A DNA stretch of 64,000 bases from Oscillospiraceae bacterium. GTDB lineage: Bacteria; Bacillota; Clostridia; Oscillospirales; Oscillospiraceae. The notes under the pieces were generated by a model that worked only from the letters and a program-made list of their open reading frames with translations, was not told where the DNA came from and searched no databases. The first letter of the stretch is position 1. Each line of letters begins with the position of its first letter. Position numbers and translations under genes: made by a program. Positions 2,611 through 57,284 of this stretch are shown here, piece by piece. The DNA is taken from assembly GCA_017509485.1 (NCBI GenBank), contig JAFWPP010000032.1:55961-119960 (forward strand), read 5' to 3'.

Positions 2611-2629
2611 ATGAGTACAATTTCATAGC

Positions 2630-2719
2630 CTTATCAAGAGTGGCGGAGGGACCGGCCCTGTGAAGCCCGGCAACCTGCATTTGCAAGGTGCCAAATCCGG
2701 CGAGAAATCGGCAGATGAG
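2630..2719 (+). promoter_or_regulatory. SAM-I (S-box) riboswitch aptamer
   Basis: CTTATCAAGAGTGGCGGAGGGACCGGCCCTGTGAAGCCCGGCAACC...GGTGCCAAATCCGGC...CAGATGAG matches the S-box core. P1 is CTTATC/GATGAG. It lies upstream of metK. Confidence 0.9.
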
Positions 2720-2740
2720 GAAGAATCGTTCAACCCGCTG

Positions 2741-2785: not shown

Positions 2786-3928
<1,143 letters not shown>

Positions 3929-13850: not shown

Positions 13851-14095
13851 GGTGTATAATAGAGACGCAAATCGGGATTTGGCAGGATGTTGCGAAAACG
13901 CCCGTAGGGGCCGATGCCCACATCGGCCCTTTCCCGTATCGGTGTGAGGGCCGATGTGGGCATCGGCCCCTACGGTGATTGCTGCATGTTCATTGCTCGT
14001 TGATGGGAAGCACTCTGTCGTCGATACCTCCCCTCATCCGGCGCTTCGCGCCACCTTCCCCCCAAGGGGAAGGCTTTTCCACAAATCCGAATCCG
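13851..14095. repeat. Compound palindromic repeat element, copy A (REP doublet plus conserved ~100-nt module plus GC hairpin)
   Basis: Arms GTAGGGGCCGATGCCCACATCGGCCC at 13904-13929 and the reverse complement at 13948-13973. The rest aligns almost base for base with the reverse complement of 30283-30619. Confidence 0.85.
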
Positions 14096-19215: not shown

Positions 19216-19244
19216 GCAGGGGCGAACGCGAGGTTCGCCCCTGC
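19216..19244 (-). terminator. Terminator/attenuator hairpin between glgP and the GH13 gene
   Basis: Minus strand: GCAGGGGCGAAC-ctcgc-GTTCGCCCCTGC followed by TTTCCC, then the GH13 RBS AAGGAG. Confidence 0.6.
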
Positions 19245-24290: not shown

Positions 24291-24670
24291 GCCCGATCCT
24301 CCTCCTTTAACAAATGGAGTTTCCTGCATTGCCGCAAAAAGCTCCTGCCCATTTCGTTGAAATCCCCGTCGATGGCGGCGGTCCGGGCCACGATCACGAT
24401 GTCGCATCCGGGCTTCAGAGCGCTCTCGTGCAGGCGGTAGCTCTCCCGGATGCGGCGGCGGGCCCGGTTGCGGTCCACCGCGCGGCCCAGCTTGACCCCG
24501 GTGGTAATGCCCAAGCGGTTGACGCTCAGGCCATTGCGTCTGGCATAGACAACGACAAAACGGCCAACGGCGCTTTCGCCCTTGGCGTAGAGCCTGCGGA
24601 ATATGTGGTTTTGCTTCAGCGGAACGGTAAATTCCACGGAAAACATCTCCTGTTGCAGCACGTGGCGCAC
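24287..24670 (-). CDS. rnpA: Ribonuclease P protein component
   Basis: Basic protein with [18 protein letters not shown] (RNR-motif region). It lies downstream of rpmH. The start is uncertain (GTG 24670 or ATG 24646). Confidence 0.9.
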
Positions 24671-24830
24671 CCTGTGCGCCGCTACAGTTGCCTGAACGCA
24701 AAGAGTCGCGGGCTATGCCTGTTTTCGGCCGCCTGATGATAAAGTTTCGGGGCGAACAGATTGACCATCCGTTCACCCCGAATCTTTCAAAGGCAATTCA
24801 ACGGACTGCCTGAACCGTTTTCCGATCTGT

Positions 24831-30282: not shown

Positions 30283-30619
30283 GATTCGGATTTGTCGGGA
30301 TGCCTTCCCCTTGGGGGGGAAGGTGGCGCGAAGCGCCGGATGAGGGGAGGTATCGACGACAGAGCGCCCCCCATCAACGAGCATTGAACATGCAGCGCCC
30401 CTCATCCGTCATCCGGCTTCCGTGAGACGCCGGATGCCACCTTCCCCCGAGGGGGAAGGCTTTGCGGAGAGCAATCACCGTAGGGGCCGAACTCGAAGAG
30501 TCACGAATGTATGCCTACATCGGCCCTATCCCGTATCGGTGTGGGGGCCGATGTGGGCATCGGCCCCTACGGGCGTTTTCGCAACATCCCTACAAATCCC
30601 GATTTCTGCAGTTATCATA
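30283..30619. repeat. Compound palindromic repeat element, copy B
   Basis: REP arms at 30480-30526 (interrupted by a 21-nt insert at 30491-30511) and 30545-30570. The conserved module at 30303-30400 and the flanks match the reverse complement of copy A. An extra ~75-nt two-hairpin module lies at 30400-30475. Confidence 0.85.
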
Positions 30620-32280: not shown

Positions 32281-32373
32281 AATTCGGATTTATCAAGTGA
32301 AAAGGCGCAAGGTTCCGGGGATCTGCTGTCTTCCGCCTTGAGCCTTGCACCTTGGCGCTGCAAATCCCGAATT
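32281..32373. repeat. Possible core-less relative of the palindromic elements (outer inverted repeats only)
   Basis: AATTCGGATTT (32281-32291) and AAATCCCGAATT (32362-32373) form the same outer inverted repeat seen around the REP doublets. No GTAG arms lie between them. Confidence 0.35.
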
Positions 32374-42042: not shown

Positions 42043-42137
42043 GGTTTCCTCCTATAACATGTCGCAGTTGTGATGCCCCCTTCGGCCCGTTTCCCTGTCT
42101 CGTCAGGAGGGCAGCCGGGGGCATCGGCCCCTGCGGA

Positions 42138-47796: not shown

Positions 47797-48363
47797 CTAC
47801 GAGCAGTGACTTTTCCGGTCCCCGTCCCCTACGGCCTGGTGATAGAGCCCTGCCAGAAGCTGCCAGAGGCCCTTGTCGAGGATACCTGAGGGCTCCGCGC
47901 CGCAGCAGCGCTGGAGGCTGCGAAGGGCTTCGGCGGTGGTCTCGTCGCAGACCCCGGAGAGGGGGCAGTCCGCCACGTTGGGGTAGACCTGGTGGAGGAT
48001 GTGGAGCATGGCCTGGATCAGCAGCACGTGGAGGTTGTCGCTGCCCTCCAGGATGGCCTGGTTGGGGTTCATCACGATGTCCAGGGGCGCGGCGGGCTCC
48101 ACCTCCACGGCGGCGGTCCGGTAGGCGGCGCAGATCGCCTGCCAGGTGGCGAAGTCGGTGATCCCCGTCTGGGGCAGGCCGGCCCGCTTCTGCTGGAGCG
48201 AGACGGCCTTGGCGGTCTGGGGCCCGTAGATTCCGTCCGGAATCACCCGGGGGCAGTTCTTGTCATGCAGGGCGATCACCCGCAGCATGGTCTGCAGACT
48301 GGTAACGGATCGGCCTGAGAAGCGCGCATCGTTGTTGGGGTCCGTAGGTACTCCTCCTTTCAA
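47797..48363 (-). CDS. Protein with two PG_binding_1 (peptidoglycan-binding) domains
   Basis: Repeats GRSVTSLQTMLRVIAL...DGIYGPQTAKAV...TGITDFATWQAI and LHVLLIQAMLHIL...CDETTAEALRSLQ...GILDKGLWQLL. The only in-frame start is the TTG at 48363, which sits upstream of an AAAGGAGGAG. The start is unresolved. Confidence 0.75.
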   Translation of the reverse strand: MKGGVPTDPNNDARFSGRSVTSLQTMLRVIALHDKNCPRVIPDGIYGPQTAKAVSLQQKRAGLPQTGITDFATWQAICAAYRTAAVEVEPAAPLDIVMNPNQAILEGSDNLHVLLIQAMLHILHQVYPNVADCPLSGVCDETTAEALRSLQRCCGAEPSGILDKGLWQLLAGLYHQAVGDGDRKSHCS

Positions 48364-48487
48364 AATCGGGGTTTGCCGGGCTCATTCGTAGGGGCCGATG
48401 CCCACATCGGCCCTCCCGATTGACCGGGGCAAGGGCCGATGTGGGCATCGGCCCCTACGGGTTGGAGCGCCCGACAAATCCGAATTG
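48361..48487. repeat. REP doublet (REPIN-like element), copy C
   Basis: Arms at 48388-48413 and 48433-48458, 19-nt spacer. Outer inverted repeat CAAAATCGGGGTTTGCCGGG / CCCGACAAATCCGAATTG. Confidence 0.85.
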
Positions 48488-50723: not shown

Positions 50724-51689
50724 CTACAGGGTGAACTGGACAGCGCAGAAGGCGGCGTAGATCAGCAGCAGCAGGATGCCCTGGGCCCGGGAGAGCTTGC
50801 CCTTGAGCAGGGCGGGCAGGGTGAGGATCAGCATGACGGTGATCATCAGGGGGATTTCCAGCACCAGGCTGGCGTTGTGGCCGAAGAGCATGGCGCTCTG
50901 AGGCACCTTGAAGGGGGCCAGGGTCACGGAGACGCCGCTGACCAGCACCAGGTTGAACACGTTGGCGCCGATGACGTTGCCCAGAGACAGATCGCTGTGG
51001 CCCTTCACCAGGGAGGTGATGGCGGTGACCAGCTCCGGCAGGCTGGTGCCCAGGGCCACGAAGGTCAGGGCAATGACGGACTCGGGCACGCCCAGGGCCT
51101 GGGCAATCTTGGTGCCGTTGTCCACCAGCAGCTTCGCGCCCACGGCGATCAGGGCCGCGCCCACCACCAGGAAAAGGATCATCTTCCAGGTGGGCATCTC
51201 CTCGGCTTCCTCGGTCTCCGCCTCCACGGGCTGGGGATTCTTCTTCATCTGCCGCACGGTGACGATCATATAGGCCACGAACATGGTCAGCATCACCAGG
51301 CCCAAAATCCGGGTGAATTCTCCCAGCAGATAGGCCGCCACGCAGTAGATGGCCGCCGCCAGGAAGAAGAAGAGCACGGGCATTTTCAGGGTCTTGGGGT
51401 CCGCCTTGCCGGGCCGCACCGCCAGGGTGACAGCGGCGATCAGGGCCGTGTTGCAGATGACGGAGCCGATGGCGTTGCCGTAGGCGATTTCGCCGTGACC
51501 TTCCACGGCAGAGATCGTGGAGACCATGACCTCCGGCAGGGTGGTGCCGATGGACACCACGGTGGCGCCGATCAGCAGCTCGGGCAGATGGAATTTGCGG
51601 GCCAAGGCGCTGGCGCCGTCCACGAACCAGTCTCCGCCCTTGATGAGGCAGACCAGACCGACGATAAACAGTAATATCGGGACAAGCAT
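50724..51689 (-). CDS. CaCA family cation antiporter (YrbG-like)
   Basis: Two alpha-repeats (GATVVSIGTTLPE and FVALGTSLPELV). Start at ATG 51689 after GGAGGA. Confidence 0.9.
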   Translation of the reverse strand: MLVPILLFIVGLVCLIKGGDWFVDGASALARKFHLPELLIGATVVSIGTTLPEVMVSTISAVEGHGEIAYGNAIGSVICNTALIAAVTLAVRPGKADPKTLKMPVLFFFLAAAIYCVAAYLLGEFTRILGLVMLTMFVAYMIVTVRQMKKNPQPVEAETEEAEEMPTWKMILFLVVGAALIAVGAKLLVDNGTKIAQALGVPESVIALTFVALGTSLPELVTAITSLVKGHSDLSLGNVIGANVFNLVLVSGVSVTLAPFKVPQSAMLFGHNASLVLEIPLMITVMLILTLPALLKGKLSRAQGILLLLIYAAFCAVQFTL

Positions 51690-51754
51690 ATACGTTCCTC
51701 CATTTTCAAAATCAAACTGTGTAATTGGACAAGCTCCATGGGCGTTCATCCCAT

Positions 51755-51811
51755 AGAAAAGGCGAGACCTTCGCCGCGGACAGAGCAAAGCTGTGCGGCA
51801 AAGGTCTCGCC
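51755..51811 (-). terminator. Riboswitch expression-platform terminator
   Basis: Minus strand: GGCGAGACCTTTGCCGC-17 nt-GCGGCGAAGGTCTCGCC followed by TTTTCT. The 5' arm is shared with the 3' end of the aptamer. Confidence 0.7.
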
Positions 51812-51890
51812 TCTTCGTCCCGCGCCGGGTCCTAAGACCGTACTGACGGCGGCGGGAGCGTCCGATGGACGCTGGCTACTCCCCAATGCT
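51797..51890 (-). promoter_or_regulatory. yybP-ykoY (Mn2+) riboswitch-like aptamer
   Basis: The leader begins GCAUUGGGGAGUAGCC (hallmark GGGGAGUAGC), continues with nested hairpins, and ends GGCGAGACCUUUGCC (compare conserved CAAGACC plus the P1 3' strand). It lies upstream of a cation transporter. Confidence 0.65.
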
Positions 51891-51896
51891 GGGAAC

Positions 51897-51925
51897 AATA
51901 TACCAGATTTCCGGGGACTTGTCAA
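51897..51925 (-). promoter_or_regulatory. Promoter of the riboswitch-CaCA transcript
   Basis: Minus strand: TTGACA, 17 nt, TATATT, ending ~7 nt before the aptamer. Confidence 0.65.
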
Positions 51926-51955
51926 GGCGTTTGTGCGCATCATCGTTGAGAAAAA

Positions 51956-52087
51956 CAGGATTTGTCGAAATCATCCGCAGGGGCCGAACTCGAAGAGTCA
52001 CGATGTATGCCTACCTCGGCCCTCCCTGTGGGCAGAGGAAAGGGCCGCTGTGGGCATCGGCCCCTACGCCTCCGCAAATCCGAAAAT
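51956..52087. repeat. REP doublet (REPIN-like element), copy D
   Basis: The 51977-52022 arm starts GCAG and carries a 20-nt insert at 51988-52007. The second arm is at 52042-52067. The element lies 19 nt downstream of the MATE stop. Confidence 0.8.
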
Positions 52088-52106
52088 GACGGCCGGATTG
52101 CCCGCG

Positions 52107-53468
52107 CTACACTGTGTTGGCGCGCATTTTCCGCCAGACGACAAAATACATCGTGGTGAAGCAGGCGCTGGCGCCCACCAGCTGGCTGATGAATTCAGCC
52201 CAGAAGACGCCCTCGACGCCCAAGCCCAGGCCGGGCAGCAGCAGGGTCAGCGGAGCCACCAGGATCAGCTTCCGCAGCGTAGAGAAGAACAGGGCGTGCC
52301 TGGGGTGATTCAGGGCCACAAAGGTGTGCTGGCCCGTGACCTGGAGGGCCATGAAGGGGAAGGCGCCGAAATAGATCCGTGCGCAGCGAACCGTCAGCGC
52401 CACCAGGGCCTCGTCCCCGGTAAAAACCCGGATCAGGACCTGGGGGCAGAACATGGCCATGGCCCACATGAGGGTATTGATGACCAGACCGCCCAGCAGG
52501 ACAAAGCGGATGCCGTCGGAGACCCGACGGTAGCGCCTGGCCCCATAGTTGTAGCTCATGACAGCCTGGCCGCCCTGGGTCACGCCGTTGATGGGCAGGC
52601 TCATGATCTCGCGCATGGAGTTGATCAGGCCCATAGCCCCAATGTAGAGGCTGTCGGGACCGCCCCAGGCCTTCAGCATCACATTGACGATGGCTTGGGT
52701 GACGGAATTCGTCACCTTGAACATAAAGCCTGTGACGCCCAGCTTCATGACGTTCTTGAGCTGGGGCCAGTCGATTCCGAGCCCGCGCAGGCGAACCGGA
52801 GGCCGTTTCCCGGTAAGGAAGCGGAGCACCCAGAAGGCGCTGGCCGTCTGGGACAGGACCGTCGCCAGGGCCGCGCCCCGGACACCCATTTCCAGAGCAT
52901 AGATGAAGATGGGATCCAGAACGATGTTCAGGGCGGCGCCCAGGATCACCGTCACCATGCCAACCCGGGGAAAGCCCTGGGCGTTGATGAAGGGATTCAT
53001 GCCAAGGCTGATCAAGACGGGAATGGTGCCCGCCACGTAAATGCGGAAATAGTCCAGGGCGTAGGGCAGCGTGGTCGCATTGCCTCCCAGGAGGGTCAGA
53101 GTCCAGGGGGCCGTGGTAAAGAGCAGGAGCATCAGGGTCCCGCCGATGATAAGCAGGCAAGTAAACGCTGTCTGCATGATCCGTCCGGCCCGCTCGTCGT
53201 CCCCCTCGCCCCGGGCGATGGTGGAGAGGGTGGCGCCGCCGGTGCTGCAGAGGTTGGCAAAGGCGCCGATCAGAGTGATCAGCGGGAAGCAAACCCCGAG
53301 ACCGATCAGGGCGTTGGTGCCCTCCGGCTCCGGCAGGTGGCCGATGTACATGCGGTCCACGATGTTGTAGAGGACGTGTACCAGCTCGGCCAGGATGATG
53401 GGCAGCCCCAGCTTCAGGATCAGCGCTGAAACCCTGCCTTGTGAAAAATCGCCTTTTGCGGCGGCCAT
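52107..53468 (-). CDS. MATE family efflux transporter
   Basis: 453 aa, 12 TM, with MATE-like N-terminus (LILKLGLPIILAELVHVLYNIVDRMYIGH). Confidence 0.92.
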   Translation of the reverse strand: MAAAKGDFSQGRVSALILKLGLPIILAELVHVLYNIVDRMYIGHLPEPEGTNALIGLGVCFPLITLIGAFANLCSTGGATLSTIARGEGDDERAGRIMQTAFTCLLIIGGTLMLLLFTTAPWTLTLLGGNATTLPYALDYFRIYVAGTIPVLISLGMNPFINAQGFPRVGMVTVILGAALNIVLDPIFIYALEMGVRGAALATVLSQTASAFWVLRFLTGKRPPVRLRGLGIDWPQLKNVMKLGVTGFMFKVTNSVTQAIVNVMLKAWGGPDSLYIGAMGLINSMREIMSLPINGVTQGGQAVMSYNYGARRYRRVSDGIRFVLLGGLVINTLMWAMAMFCPQVLIRVFTGDEALVALTVRCARIYFGAFPFMALQVTGQHTFVALNHPRHALFFSTLRKLILVAPLTLLLPGLGLGVEGVFWAEFISQLVGASACFTTMYFVVWRKMRANTV

Positions 53469-55014: not shown

Positions 55015-55085
55015 AGCACGTTCCTCCGTGTTGCATTTTTGTTATTATATCAGATTTGCGCCTGTGCTTCAAGCGTTTTCTTCTG

Positions 55086-55203
55086 AAATACGGATTTGGC
55101 GATTTCATCCGTAGGGGCCGATGCCCACATCGGCCCTCTCTGTCGAGCGGGGCAAGGGCCGATGTGGGCATCGGCCCCTACGGCTCTACAAATCCCGATT
55201 TTA
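55086..55203. repeat. REP doublet (REPIN-like element), copy E
   Basis: Arms at 55111-55136 and 55156-55181, 19-nt spacer. Outer inverted repeat ATACGGATTTGGCG / CTACAAATCCCGAT. It lies between the metG stop and the next gene's start. Confidence 0.85.
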
Positions 55204-55250
55204 CGGCCCGCAAAAAAGAGGAGACCCCCGAAGGAGTCTCCTCAATACTC

Positions 55251-57284
55251 TCAGCAAAGTCTGCTGCCGGCGGGGATGGCATCGTCCAGGATCAGCAGAT
55301 GCAGCTTTTCGCCGCGCTCGGCGGAGAGCAGCATGCCGCAGCTGAGCTGCCCCATCATCTTCCGGGGGGCCAGGTTGGTGACGGCAACCAAGGTCTTGCC
55401 GATCAGCTCCTCAGGCTTGTAGAACTTGGCGATGCCCGAGAGGATCTGGCGGGGGGTGCCGGTGCCGTCGTCCAGCTGGAACTTCAGCAGCTTCTCGGAC
55501 TTCTTCAAGTTCTCGCAGGCCAGGACCTTGACGACGGTCATCTCGACCTTGGTGAAATCGTCAAACACGATCTCGGGAAGCGGCTCCGGCAGAGGGGCCT
55601 CCTCCACGGGGGCGGCAGGGCCGATGTGGGCATCGGCCCCTACGGCAGCGTCCTCCTGTGGCGCACACTGTGCGCCGCTACTGGCAGCGGCCTGGGCAGC
55701 CTGGAGCTTTTCCAGCTCCTCCAGTTCCTTGGCGGCGTCAATGCGGGGGAAGAGAGCAGGGCTGTTCTCCACCTTGGCGTCCCGGTAGAGAGTGCCGAAG
55801 AAGGCCAGGGAATCCCAGTCGTACTCCGTGGCTCCGATGCGCTTCATGATCTCTGCGGAGGTGGCGGGCATGAAGGGCTGCAGCAGGCCGCCGCAGATGC
55901 GGACGGTCTCCAGCAGATTGTAGAGCACCCGGGCCAGACGGGGCTTCTTGTCCTCGTCCTTGGCCAGCTTCCAGGGCTCGTTCTCGTCGATATATTTGTT
56001 GGCCCGGCCGATGACCTTAAAGATTTCGCCCAGAGCGTTCTGGAAAGCGTACTTCTCCATCTGCTCCTCGTAGACGTGGACCAGATCGCAGGCCATGGTA
56101 ATCAGCTCGTCGTCCTTGGCCTCATCCTCCTGCTGCTCCAGGGGCAGCTGGCCGCCGAAGTACTTGCCCGCCATAGCCACGGTGCGGCTGACCAGGTTGC
56201 CCAGATCGTTGGCCAGATCCACGTTGATGGTATTGATCAGCAGCTCGTTGGTAAAGTTGCCGTCGGAGCCGAAGGGGAAGGTCCGGAGCAGGAAGAAACG
56301 CAGAGCGTCCACGCCGTAGCGCTCGGACAGCAGATAAGGATCCACCACGTTGCCCTTGGACTTGGACATCTTGTCGTTGTTGAACAGCAGCCAGCCGTGG
56401 CCGTAGATCTTCCTGGGCAGAGGCAGGCCCATGCTCATCAGGAAGGCGGGCCAATAGATGGCGTGGAAGCGGACGATCTCCTTGCCGATGAAATGCACGT
56501 CGGCGGGCCAGAAGCGCTTCCAGTCCTCGCCGTTCTCGTTCAGATAGCCCAGGGGGGACAGGTAGCTGAACAGGGCGTCCAGCCAAACATAGACCACGTG
56601 TTTTTCGTCGAAATCCACGGGCACGCCCCAGGTAAAACTGGTACGCGAAACGCAGAGGTCCTGCAGCCCGCCCTCGCAGTCGATAAAGTTGTTGACCATC
56701 TCGTTGACCCGGCTTCTGGGCTCCAGAAAATCGGTTTCGGTCAGCAGCTTCCGCACCTGGTCGGCATACTTGCTGGCCCGGAAAAAGTAGGCCTCCTCCC
56801 GGGCAGGCTGAACCTCGCGGCCGCAGTCGGGGCATTTGCCGTCCTTCAGCTGGCTCTCGGTCCAGAAGGACTCACAGGGGGTGCAGTACAGGCCCTCGTA
56901 GCTGCCCTTGTAGATGTCGCCCTTCTCATACATGGTACGGAACACAGTCTGGACCGTTTTCAGATGGGACTCGTCGGTGGTGCGGACGAAGCGGTCATAG
57001 GAAATATTCATCAGCTTCCACAGGTCCTTGACGCCCTTGGGCGCCTCCACAATGCTGTCCACGAACTGCTTGGGAGTGACGCCGGCCTCTTTGGCCTTGT
57101 TCTCGATCTTCTGGCCGTGTTCGTCGGTACCGGTGAGGAAGATCACATCGGCGCCCCGCATTCGCTTGTACCGGGCCATGACGTCCGTGGCCACGGTGCA
57201 GTAGGCATGGCCGATGTGGAGCCGGCTGGACGGATAGTAGATGGGGGTGGTGATAAAGAATTTTTCTTTGCAGGTATCACACAT
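55251..57284 (-). CDS. metG: Methionine--tRNA ligase with a C-terminal tRNA-binding (EMAP/Trbp111-like) domain
   Basis: HIGH (RLHIGHAY) and KMSKS motifs, Zn knuckle CPDCG. Start at ATG 57284 after GGAGGA. Confidence 0.95.
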   Translation of the reverse strand: MCDTCKEKFFITTPIYYPSSRLHIGHAYCTVATDVMARYKRMRGADVIFLTGTDEHGQKIENKAKEAGVTPKQFVDSIVEAPKGVKDLWKLMNISYDRFVRTTDESHLKTVQTVFRTMYEKGDIYKGSYEGLYCTPCESFWTESQLKDGKCPDCGREVQPAREEAYFFRASKYADQVRKLLTETDFLEPRSRVNEMVNNFIDCEGGLQDLCVSRTSFTWGVPVDFDEKHVVYVWLDALFSYLSPLGYLNENGEDWKRFWPADVHFIGKEIVRFHAIYWPAFLMSMGLPLPRKIYGHGWLLFNNDKMSKSKGNVVDPYLLSERYGVDALRFFLLRTFPFGSDGNFTNELLINTINVDLANDLGNLVSRTVAMAGKYFGGQLPLEQQEDEAKDDELITMACDLVHVYEEQMEKYAFQNALGEIFKVIGRANKYIDENEPWKLAKDEDKKPRLARVLYNLLETVRICGGLLQPFMPATSAEIMKRIGATEYDWDSLAFFGTLYRDAKVENSPALFPRIDAAKELEELEKLQAAQAAASSGAQCAPQEDAAVGADAHIGPAAPVEEAPLPEPLPEIVFDDFTKVEMTVVKVLACENLKKSEKLLKFQLDDGTGTPRQILSGIAKFYKPEELIGKTLVAVTNLAPRKMMGQLSCGMLLSAERGEKLHLLILDDAIPAGSRLC
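55618..55643 (-). repeat. Single REP unit embedded in frame in metG
   Basis: Exact 26-mer GGGCCGATGTGGGCATCGGCCCCTAC on the plus strand. On the coding strand it reads A-V-G-A-D-A-H-I-G-P in the linker before the C-terminal domain. Confidence 0.9.

Follow-up and report, generated by a model that had tools for sequence, protein, structure and literature searches.

The GTAG-headed palindromes in a 64-kb stretch of Oscillospiraceae DNA (referred to here as the window, meaning the whole stretch that was analysed) are very probably REP units, mostly arranged as REPIN- or BIME-like doublets, and belong to a family recognised by a lineage of RayT-type Y1 HUH transposases that is widespread in the Oscillospiraceae. 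A REPIN/RAYT interpretation had been put forward in the initial annotation of the window, and it is supported by the architecture of the repeats, by RayT-like genes which themselves carry the unit, by the co-variation of the hairpins, and by insertion polymorphism.

The repeat unit and its copies in the window

Each unit consists of a GTAG foot followed by a short perfect palindrome, and a search with the 26-mer GTAGGGGCCGATGCCCACATCGGCCC returned nine matches in the window at no more than three mismatches (eight exact copies and one with a single mismatch) compared with none in 100 shuffles of the same DNA, which has a G+C content of about 62%. Folded on its own, a unit forms a hairpin (-11.9 kcal/mol, z -5.1) whose 9-bp stem is capped by a loop of 4 nt. 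When interrupted units are included there are 11 GTAG-type units (one of them headed GCAG) at six places in the 64 kb, in the form of five inverted doublets with the GTAG outermost (heads-out) and spacers of 18–19 nt, plus one solo unit inside metG. The self-complementary hairpins and the five inverted pairs, with their positions and spacing, had been described before and are reproduced by the fold and by the 26-mer search. The earlier count of five full copies and one singlet is likewise correct, but the singlet is not intergenic and lies in frame within metG.

Around the doublets there is an imperfect inverted repeat of 12–18 bp (AAATCGGGATTTG ... CAAATCCCGATTT), which we refer to as the frame. 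The elements (E1–E5) and related features of the window are as follows:

E1, 13869–13983: half-frame AAATCGGGATTTG at 13869–13881; units at 13904–13929 (+) and 13948–13973 (-) with an 18-nt spacer; flank GGTGATTGCT at 13974–13983, common to E1 and E2; located between the divergent genes for a 2014-aa SLH protein and an RlmA-like methyltransferase.
E2, 30470–30605: of the E1 subfamily in the opposite orientation, with flank AGCAATCACC; left unit at 30480–30526 with a 21-nt insert at 30491–30511; right unit at 30545–30570 (-); 18-nt spacer, which has the inverted orientation with respect to the flanks of E1; half-frame at 30593–30605.
Frame without a REP doublet, 32281–32373: AATTCGGATTTA ... 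CAAATCCCGAATT around an unrelated core with no GTAG unit.
E3, 48363–48486: frame halves at 48363–48375 and 48475–48486; units at 48388–48413 (+) and 48433–48458 (-) with a 19-nt spacer; begins 7 nt past the stop codon of a 449-aa SpoIID/PG_binding gene.
E4, 51954–52087: frame halves at 51954–51964 and 52075–52087; left unit at 51977–52022, with a GCAG rather than GTAG head and a 20-nt insert at 51988–52007; right unit at 52042–52067 (-), with one mismatch to the 26-mer; located between the end of MatE and the promoter of a Mn-riboswitch-like leader.
E5, 55086–55202: frame halves at 55086–55098 and 55189–55202; units at 55111–55136 (+) and 55156–55181 (-) with a 19-nt spacer; located between the metG intrinsic terminator (55218–55243) and a herA-like promoter (55044–55072), 50 nt past the metG stop codon.
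Solo unit, 55618–55643 (-): exact 26-mer, in frame in the metG linker, where it encodes VGADAHIGP.
Second-type GTAG hairpin GTAGCGGCGCACAGTGTGCGCC, 55660–55681 (-): in frame in the metG linker, where it encodes SGAQCAP; the other copy is at 24664–24685 (-).

The left units of E2 and E4 are both split after GGGCCGA by the insert ACTCGAAGAGTCACGA(A)TGTA, in agreement with the earlier report of a common insert of about 21 nt in two copies, and aligning E2 and E4 by their flanks puts the split unit on the same side of each. The same insert occurs at the same position in two unrelated contigs of a viral collection (L025 and L029), and a slightly altered form is present in another strain of the window's species (L160), and so we regard it as a variant of the unit that has been propagated, and not as one that arose locally by accident. 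The copies are clustered, and no further 26-mer units were found in approximately 16 kb of flanking sequence added to the window.

We note several other hairpins in the window. At 42109–42134 (-) there is a degenerate unit (GCAGGGGCCGATGCCCCCGGCTGCCC) whose 3' arm is broken, the second hairpin type (GTAGCGGCGCACAG(T/G)GTGCGCC) is close to GTAGGGGCGCACAGTGTGCGCCC, the unit of the RayT-like genes in L236 and L241, and a perfect palindrome with a head at both feet (GCAGGGGCGAAC-GCGAG-GTTCGCCCCTGC, 19216–19244) is found between two long ORFs, its arm GGGCGAAC being that of the RAYT-associated hairpin type of L201 and L233.

The genes said to precede three of the elements (sleC-like, MATE and metG) were those we found, with E3 starting 7 nt after the first, E4 lying downstream of MatE, and E5 50 nt past the metG stop and beyond its terminator. 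Three copies occupy the space between the end of a gene and the promoter that follows, the stability of the hairpins is very high (the whole 118-nt E5 element folds with -45.9 kcal/mol, z -9.4), and roles as transcript-end stabilisers, terminators or insulators have been credited, in some accounts, to REPs elsewhere, all of which would suit elements that were mainly host-selected structural signals and no longer mobile. However, a scan for intrinsic terminators did not pick out the elements, metG has a terminator of its own upstream of E5, E1 is situated between divergent gene starts, copies occur in frame within genes, and the sites are polymorphic between close relatives (see below), and we consider this explanation improbable beside that of a REP family served by a RayT-type enzyme.

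An Rfam search of the whole window at gathering thresholds found only a SAM riboswitch (2628–2721 (+), 81 bits), which is upstream of an S-adenosylmethionine synthetase gene (2786–3928). At permissive thresholds, applied to 51600–52200 (the E4 region) only, the element itself was unmatched. The leader upstream of the Na_Ca_ex gene at 51784–51896 (-) gave a sub-threshold match to the Mn2+ (yybP-ykoY) riboswitch (22.8 bits with a gathering score of 45, E 3e-4), and near-identical leaders precede a CitMHS transporter gene in L250 and a Na_Ca_ex gene in L251.

RayT-like transposase genes in related genomes

When E. coli RayT (K-12 record) was used as a tblastn query against all of the loci that we had fetched, it matched ORFs of approximately 160 aa in the unit-bearing loci L156, L070, L049 and L072. 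These match the NCBIfam model NF047646 for REP-associated tyrosine transposases (REP_Tyr_transpos; E 7e-21 and 5e-18) just below its curated cut-off (74.7 bits, with 80 required), and also Pfam Y1_Tnp just below its own (21.6, with 23 required). A comparison with the PDB gave a single relative, E. coli TnpA_REP (4ER8, E 1.4e-9). Conserved in the RayT-like proteins are the HUH motif, the tyrosine of the Y...NP motif (Y139), W118, Q119, D124, H125 and R128. The W-Q, D-H and R residues are among those listed as contacts of the GTAG in PMC6006769.

The genes are single, occur between housekeeping genes and have no tnpB, with uvrB and a ybaK-like gene as the neighbours in L070, and nadC and rubrerythrin in L156. 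A profile search of public data recovered at least 6,729 related proteins, including one which is called 'REP element-mobilizing transposase RayT' in the JGI naming. Only three RayT-like relatives were found in a viral collection of 2.9 million contigs, which indicates that the gene is chromosomal and not phage-borne, and carriage of the RAYT by phage was rejected on this count. It was also seen that most of the RayT-like genes (L163–L242) have a lower G+C content than the surrounding DNA (e.g. 0.48 compared with 0.60), and that the in-gene hairpins are GC-rich.

The initial annotation had recorded no transposase in the window, and a tblastn search with the RayT-like proteins was indeed empty there at E <= 1e-3, as it was in two 10-kb extensions, from the same contig or a sister contig, which provide the approximately 16 kb of extra flank. 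The search for a Y1 transposase which it had proposed was successful in related genomes having matching units, and negative in the window and this flank; the genome from which the window comes presumably encodes such a RAYT elsewhere.

Units within the transposase genes and co-variation of the hairpins

The RayT-like genes contain units in frame at two fixed sites flanking the HUH motif. Site 1 is before the HUH strand and encodes VGADAHIGP, and site 2 is after the HUH, where the inverted unit encodes GPMWASAPT or a variant of it; in alignment with E. coli RayT, each of these peptides is an inserted segment. The window's own unit is found in or next to the RayT-like genes of L156, L163, L164, L070, L072 and L165–170, with the identical 26-mer in the genes of L156, L163, L164 and others. 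L164 also has a doublet with a 19-nt spacer 800 nt downstream of the gene.

The two in-gene units are heads-out and approximately 127 nt apart, and because the gene has the same pair in the same orientation as the doublets, these might be seen as decayed internal-deletion remnants of RayT-like genes. Yet the 18–19-nt spacers of the window bear no relation to the coding spacer, the elements are not bordered by the flanks of the gene, and there are several copies within 64 kb, making such an origin scarcely credible, and it was rejected given that no RayT-like match was returned by tblastn in the window. Units of a REP family acted on by a RayT-type enzyme remain our preferred explanation for the doublets.

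A metagenome scan in which the query was an alignment of four RayT-like proteins provided at least 80 further genes (537 confirmed candidates). At least one perfect GTAG hairpin was present at the two sites in 48 of 84 genes, and at both sites in 36 of the 84, with more than 20 different arm sequences among them. For the 35 distinct genes with both sites occupied, the arms were identical in 22 and differed by no more than one mismatch of eight in 34, compared with 5% and 13%, respectively, of arm pairs taken from different genes. Similarly, 56% of GTAG hairpins outside the gene matched the internal arm of their own gene, in comparison with 7.7% for other genes. Where units have drifted, both arms have changed together and the stem has been kept, as in L156 at site 2 (GGCTCGATG/CATCGAGCC) and in L072 at site 1 (GGGGCGATG/CATCGCCCC). 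It should be noted that the identical 26-mer is common to genomes whose RAYTs are only about 50–58% identical. Some homologues have two to five tandem copies of VGADAHIGP at site 1 (P0134, P0142, P0148, P0172, P0176 and P0232), which points to repeated insertion at this site.

Distribution of the unit

Scanning species-representative genomes with the 26-mer identified at least 117 stretches, and nearly all of those listed come from Oscillospiraceae, Ruminococcaceae or 'Clostridiales' gut or rumen MAGs, with Flavonifractor plautii ATCC 29863 and Pseudoflavonifractor MSJ-30 also among the unit-bearing genomes listed; a further 40 stretches with the unit were found in contigs of the viral collection. 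The fetched sequences contain 286 units in all, which include 59 heads-out doublets, seven heads-in pairs, eight tandem pairs, six double-foot hairpins (with GTAG and CTAC feet) and 129 singlets. Three spacer classes can be distinguished amongst them (19 nt, about 55 nt, and about 125–150 nt), the last of which corresponds to the pair of units inside the RayT-like genes. In the class of about 55 nt the spacer is conserved across genomes (GGCAGAATG...TTCGGCGAATTCGCAACTTCCCA) and occurs in both orientations, and these doublets are often flanked by GCGAATTCG-like outer repeats (L003, L031, L084, L094, L119, L131 and others). Proteins of the window are present on ENA metagenome contigs (e.g. ERZ27256869:k141_1273214, 167 kb), and the nearest block in the genome collection belongs to an Oscillospiraceae MAG from water-buffalo rumen (86% identity over 3.8 kb).

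Insertion polymorphism at orthologous sites

Comparison of orthologous regions, which had been suggested as a means of looking for presence or absence of the elements, revealed polymorphism at E3, at E4, in the core of E5 and in the metG linker. The relatives used here were fetched through their metG homologues (91% identity for L249 and 82% for L250). At the E3 site in L250, only 19 nt separate the 449-aa SpoIID/PG_binding gene from the next gene, so that this is a clean empty site, and in alignment the window is longer by approximately 129 bases, namely the doublet inside its frame, the insertion having GGAGGA at either side. E4 is also absent downstream of MatE in L250. At the E5 site, L249 has kept the metG terminator, both halves of the frame and the herA promoter, but the core is a palindrome array of approximately 190 nt in place of the doublet. 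No empty site for E5 was found in the relatives, as L249 keeps the frame, and L250 and L251 have two extra genes.

Several further differences were noticed at these junctions. In L250 the 188-aa PG_binding_1 gene starts with an ATG following AAGGAGG, and the window has ACG at this position (48340–48366, the start of a minus-strand gene), where the inserted element's final bases supply the sole upstream in-frame start, a TTG. The replacement core of L249 (12140–12330) consists of the self-complementary modules CCTCCCCTGCAAAGGGGAGG, GGACCGCCCGCAAGGGCGGT and CCCCAGTGTGCGCACTGGGG, suggesting that there are further palindromic repeat families in these genomes. The gap between metG and the herA-like gene is occupied by DUF4956 and VTC-domain genes in L250 (11972–13674) and in L251 (12074–15342, plus others), which are lacking from the window (55015–55250) and L249, and in these two a framed element is at that junction.

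The metG linker (55560–55700, minus strand), which joins the MetRS core to the tRNA-binding domain at the C terminus, is a hot spot for the in-frame insertion of palindromes. It is approximately 33 aa long in baseline metG homologues and 41–82 aa in close relatives, and the close homologues (P0001–P0047) differ by 8–50 aa of palindrome-encoded modules in varying combinations, among them VGADAHIGP, SGAQCAPQ and ACRDEHCSSADKQ..GADKQCLSLQ (a whole in-frame doublet). These insertions were confirmed at the DNA level in L243, L249 and L251, and the solo unit encoding VGADAHIGP is itself present in some and absent from other close homologues. The mobility of the doublets is supported by these comparisons of the empty site, the absent E4, the swapped cores, and gain or loss in the metG linker.

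The outer inverted repeat

It had been claimed that an outer repeat framed every doublet. This holds for E3, E4 and E5, the only three with both halves of the frame, but not for E1 and E2, which have one half each plus the common short flank. The supposed core-less relative at 32281–32373 does have the outer repeat, but this encloses an unrelated core. When E1 and E2 are compared, the flanks are mutually reverse-complementary and the spacers have the same plus-strand orientation, which means that the spacer is inverted relative to the flanks. Such an arrangement would fit recombination between the two inverted 26-mers, and would equally fit a symmetrical doublet that had been re-inserted in either orientation.

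The joint absence of frame and doublet from the empty E3 site raises the possibility that the unit which moved was a framed composite with ends other than the GTAG hairpins, i.e. a MITE with the outer repeat AAATCGGGATTTG ... CAAATCCCGATTT mobilised by another transposase and with the doublet as one possible core or passenger. The GGAGGA on both sides of the E3 insertion would agree with this, as would the variety of cores found within frames, which include the one at 32281–32373, those at two sites in L249 (E5 and a frame with yet another core downstream of MatE), and a doublet from a different GTAG REP family in the sheep-rumen MAG L048. Against it, we found no consistent target duplication when the flanks of the other elements were read directly, and neither an empty frame nor a long element bounded by frame repeats in 1.9 Mb of related sequence, nor, in the fetched loci, any autonomous element terminated by the outer repeat. 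Furthermore, doublets without a frame are found in other genomes (e.g. L164, L052 and L111), and the solo and in-frame units are left unexplained by a frame. A framed MITE is on balance unlikely, and the preferred interpretation is still that of a REP family recognised by RayT-type transposases.

The frame itself appears to be distinct from the REP and to form a layer of its own. It may be a persistent, lineage-specific structure with an exchangeable interior, in which frames act as landing pads or exchange cassettes for hairpin DNA processed by the RAYT, and we offer this as a speculative and rather doubtful suggestion; if true, it would amount to a two-layer, site-directed form of REP insertion that is undescribed for REPINs. 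An in-gene ...QIP... segment of the RayT-like gene also has a weak resemblance to the outer repeat (chance probability ~0.04).

Proposed mechanism

The doublets, the co-variation of hairpins across approximately 80 genes, the conservation of residues and the presence or absence of elements can all be read directly from sequence comparison. The repeat architecture, the enzyme family and the gene-specific hairpins agree with the published model of REP-RAYT systems, in which a folded single-stranded hairpin with a 5' GTAG is recognised by a Y1 HUH enzyme that cuts and rejoins it. In the mechanism we propose for the window, the hairpin would likewise be bound and cut by a RAYT acting in trans, such that doublets were copied or moved as non-autonomous elements. 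Non-autonomous copying of doublets is what has been proposed for the REPs and REPINs of E. coli and Pseudomonas. Co-evolution between perfect-palindrome REPs and their enzymes has been described (PMC8266576, PMC3333891).

Comparison with known systems

The elements resemble the GTAG-type REPs, BIMEs and REPINs of E. coli and Pseudomonas fluorescens in having a 5' GTAG foot on a GC-rich palindrome and in forming inverted doublets, and the HUH/Y1 enzyme with its REP-specific pairing, found here in related genomes, is another feature held in common with the REP-RAYT systems of these species. Most copies lie outside genes and a few are in frame within them, as described for GTAG REPs (PMC3733652). 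The systems differ in that the host here is a Bacillota (Oscillospiraceae) anaerobe, one 26-mer is common to RAYTs that are as divergent as noted above, and the doublets have the additional outer inverted repeat; the palindrome, moreover, is perfect and short (9 bp) and has no bulge, in contrast to the REPs of E. coli.

The arrangement is that published for subclass 2.4 of the TnpA_REP proteins, for which in-frame REPs in the transposase gene and double-foot REPs are the hallmark (PMC6006769, Quentin 2018), as we too find in-frame REPs in the gene, further copies flanking it, and double-foot GTAG...CTAC hairpins. This subclass has been described as abundant in Cyanobacteria and Bacteroidetes and we place the Oscillospiraceae genes beside it by their features. 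Insertions in subclass 2.4 are generally between the HuH and the Y (PMC6006769), whereas here they occupy two fixed sites, one of which is before the HUH. The combination of a hairpin with a short guide or cleavage motif on single-stranded DNA and a related HUH enzyme (the Y1 TnpA) is also a property of IS200/IS605 elements; in contrast to these, the hairpins do not bound the transposase gene as its ends, there is no tnpB, and the gene stands by itself among housekeeping genes. Longer repeated structures with inverted repeats, formed from GTAG units and unrelated stem-loops, have been reported by Di Nocera et al. 2013 (PMC3733652) and are similar to the framed elements, although in our case orthologous sites retain the outer repeat around differing cores, and this repeat is lineage-specific.

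Since in-gene REPs (PMC6006769) and in-frame REPs in other genes (PMC3733652) have already been published, our findings extend a known system. Our search of the literature for REPs in Oscillospiraceae or Faecalibacterium produced nothing relevant, and the REP-RAYT papers we examined say of Clostridia only that some RAYTs occur there. We found no prior description of the abundance of these repeats in the Oscillospiraceae, of a fixed insertion site ahead of the HUH, or of an outer frame with exchangeable cores.

Biological significance

The study of REP/REPIN-RAYT systems has been almost entirely confined to Proteobacteria. No new mechanism is implied by our analysis. It brings a major group of gut anaerobes within the scope of REP-RAYT biology, and shows that the Oscillospiraceae of gut and rumen have a large and diverse population of these systems, whose genes each display their own substrate hairpin in frame. 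The cognate REP of such a genome can be read directly from its RAYT gene. The repeats also explain the odd peptides VGADAHIGP and GPMWASAPT in predicted proteins as well as some assembly breaks, and REP insertions lengthen protein linkers in these bacteria, as exemplified by the linker of metG.
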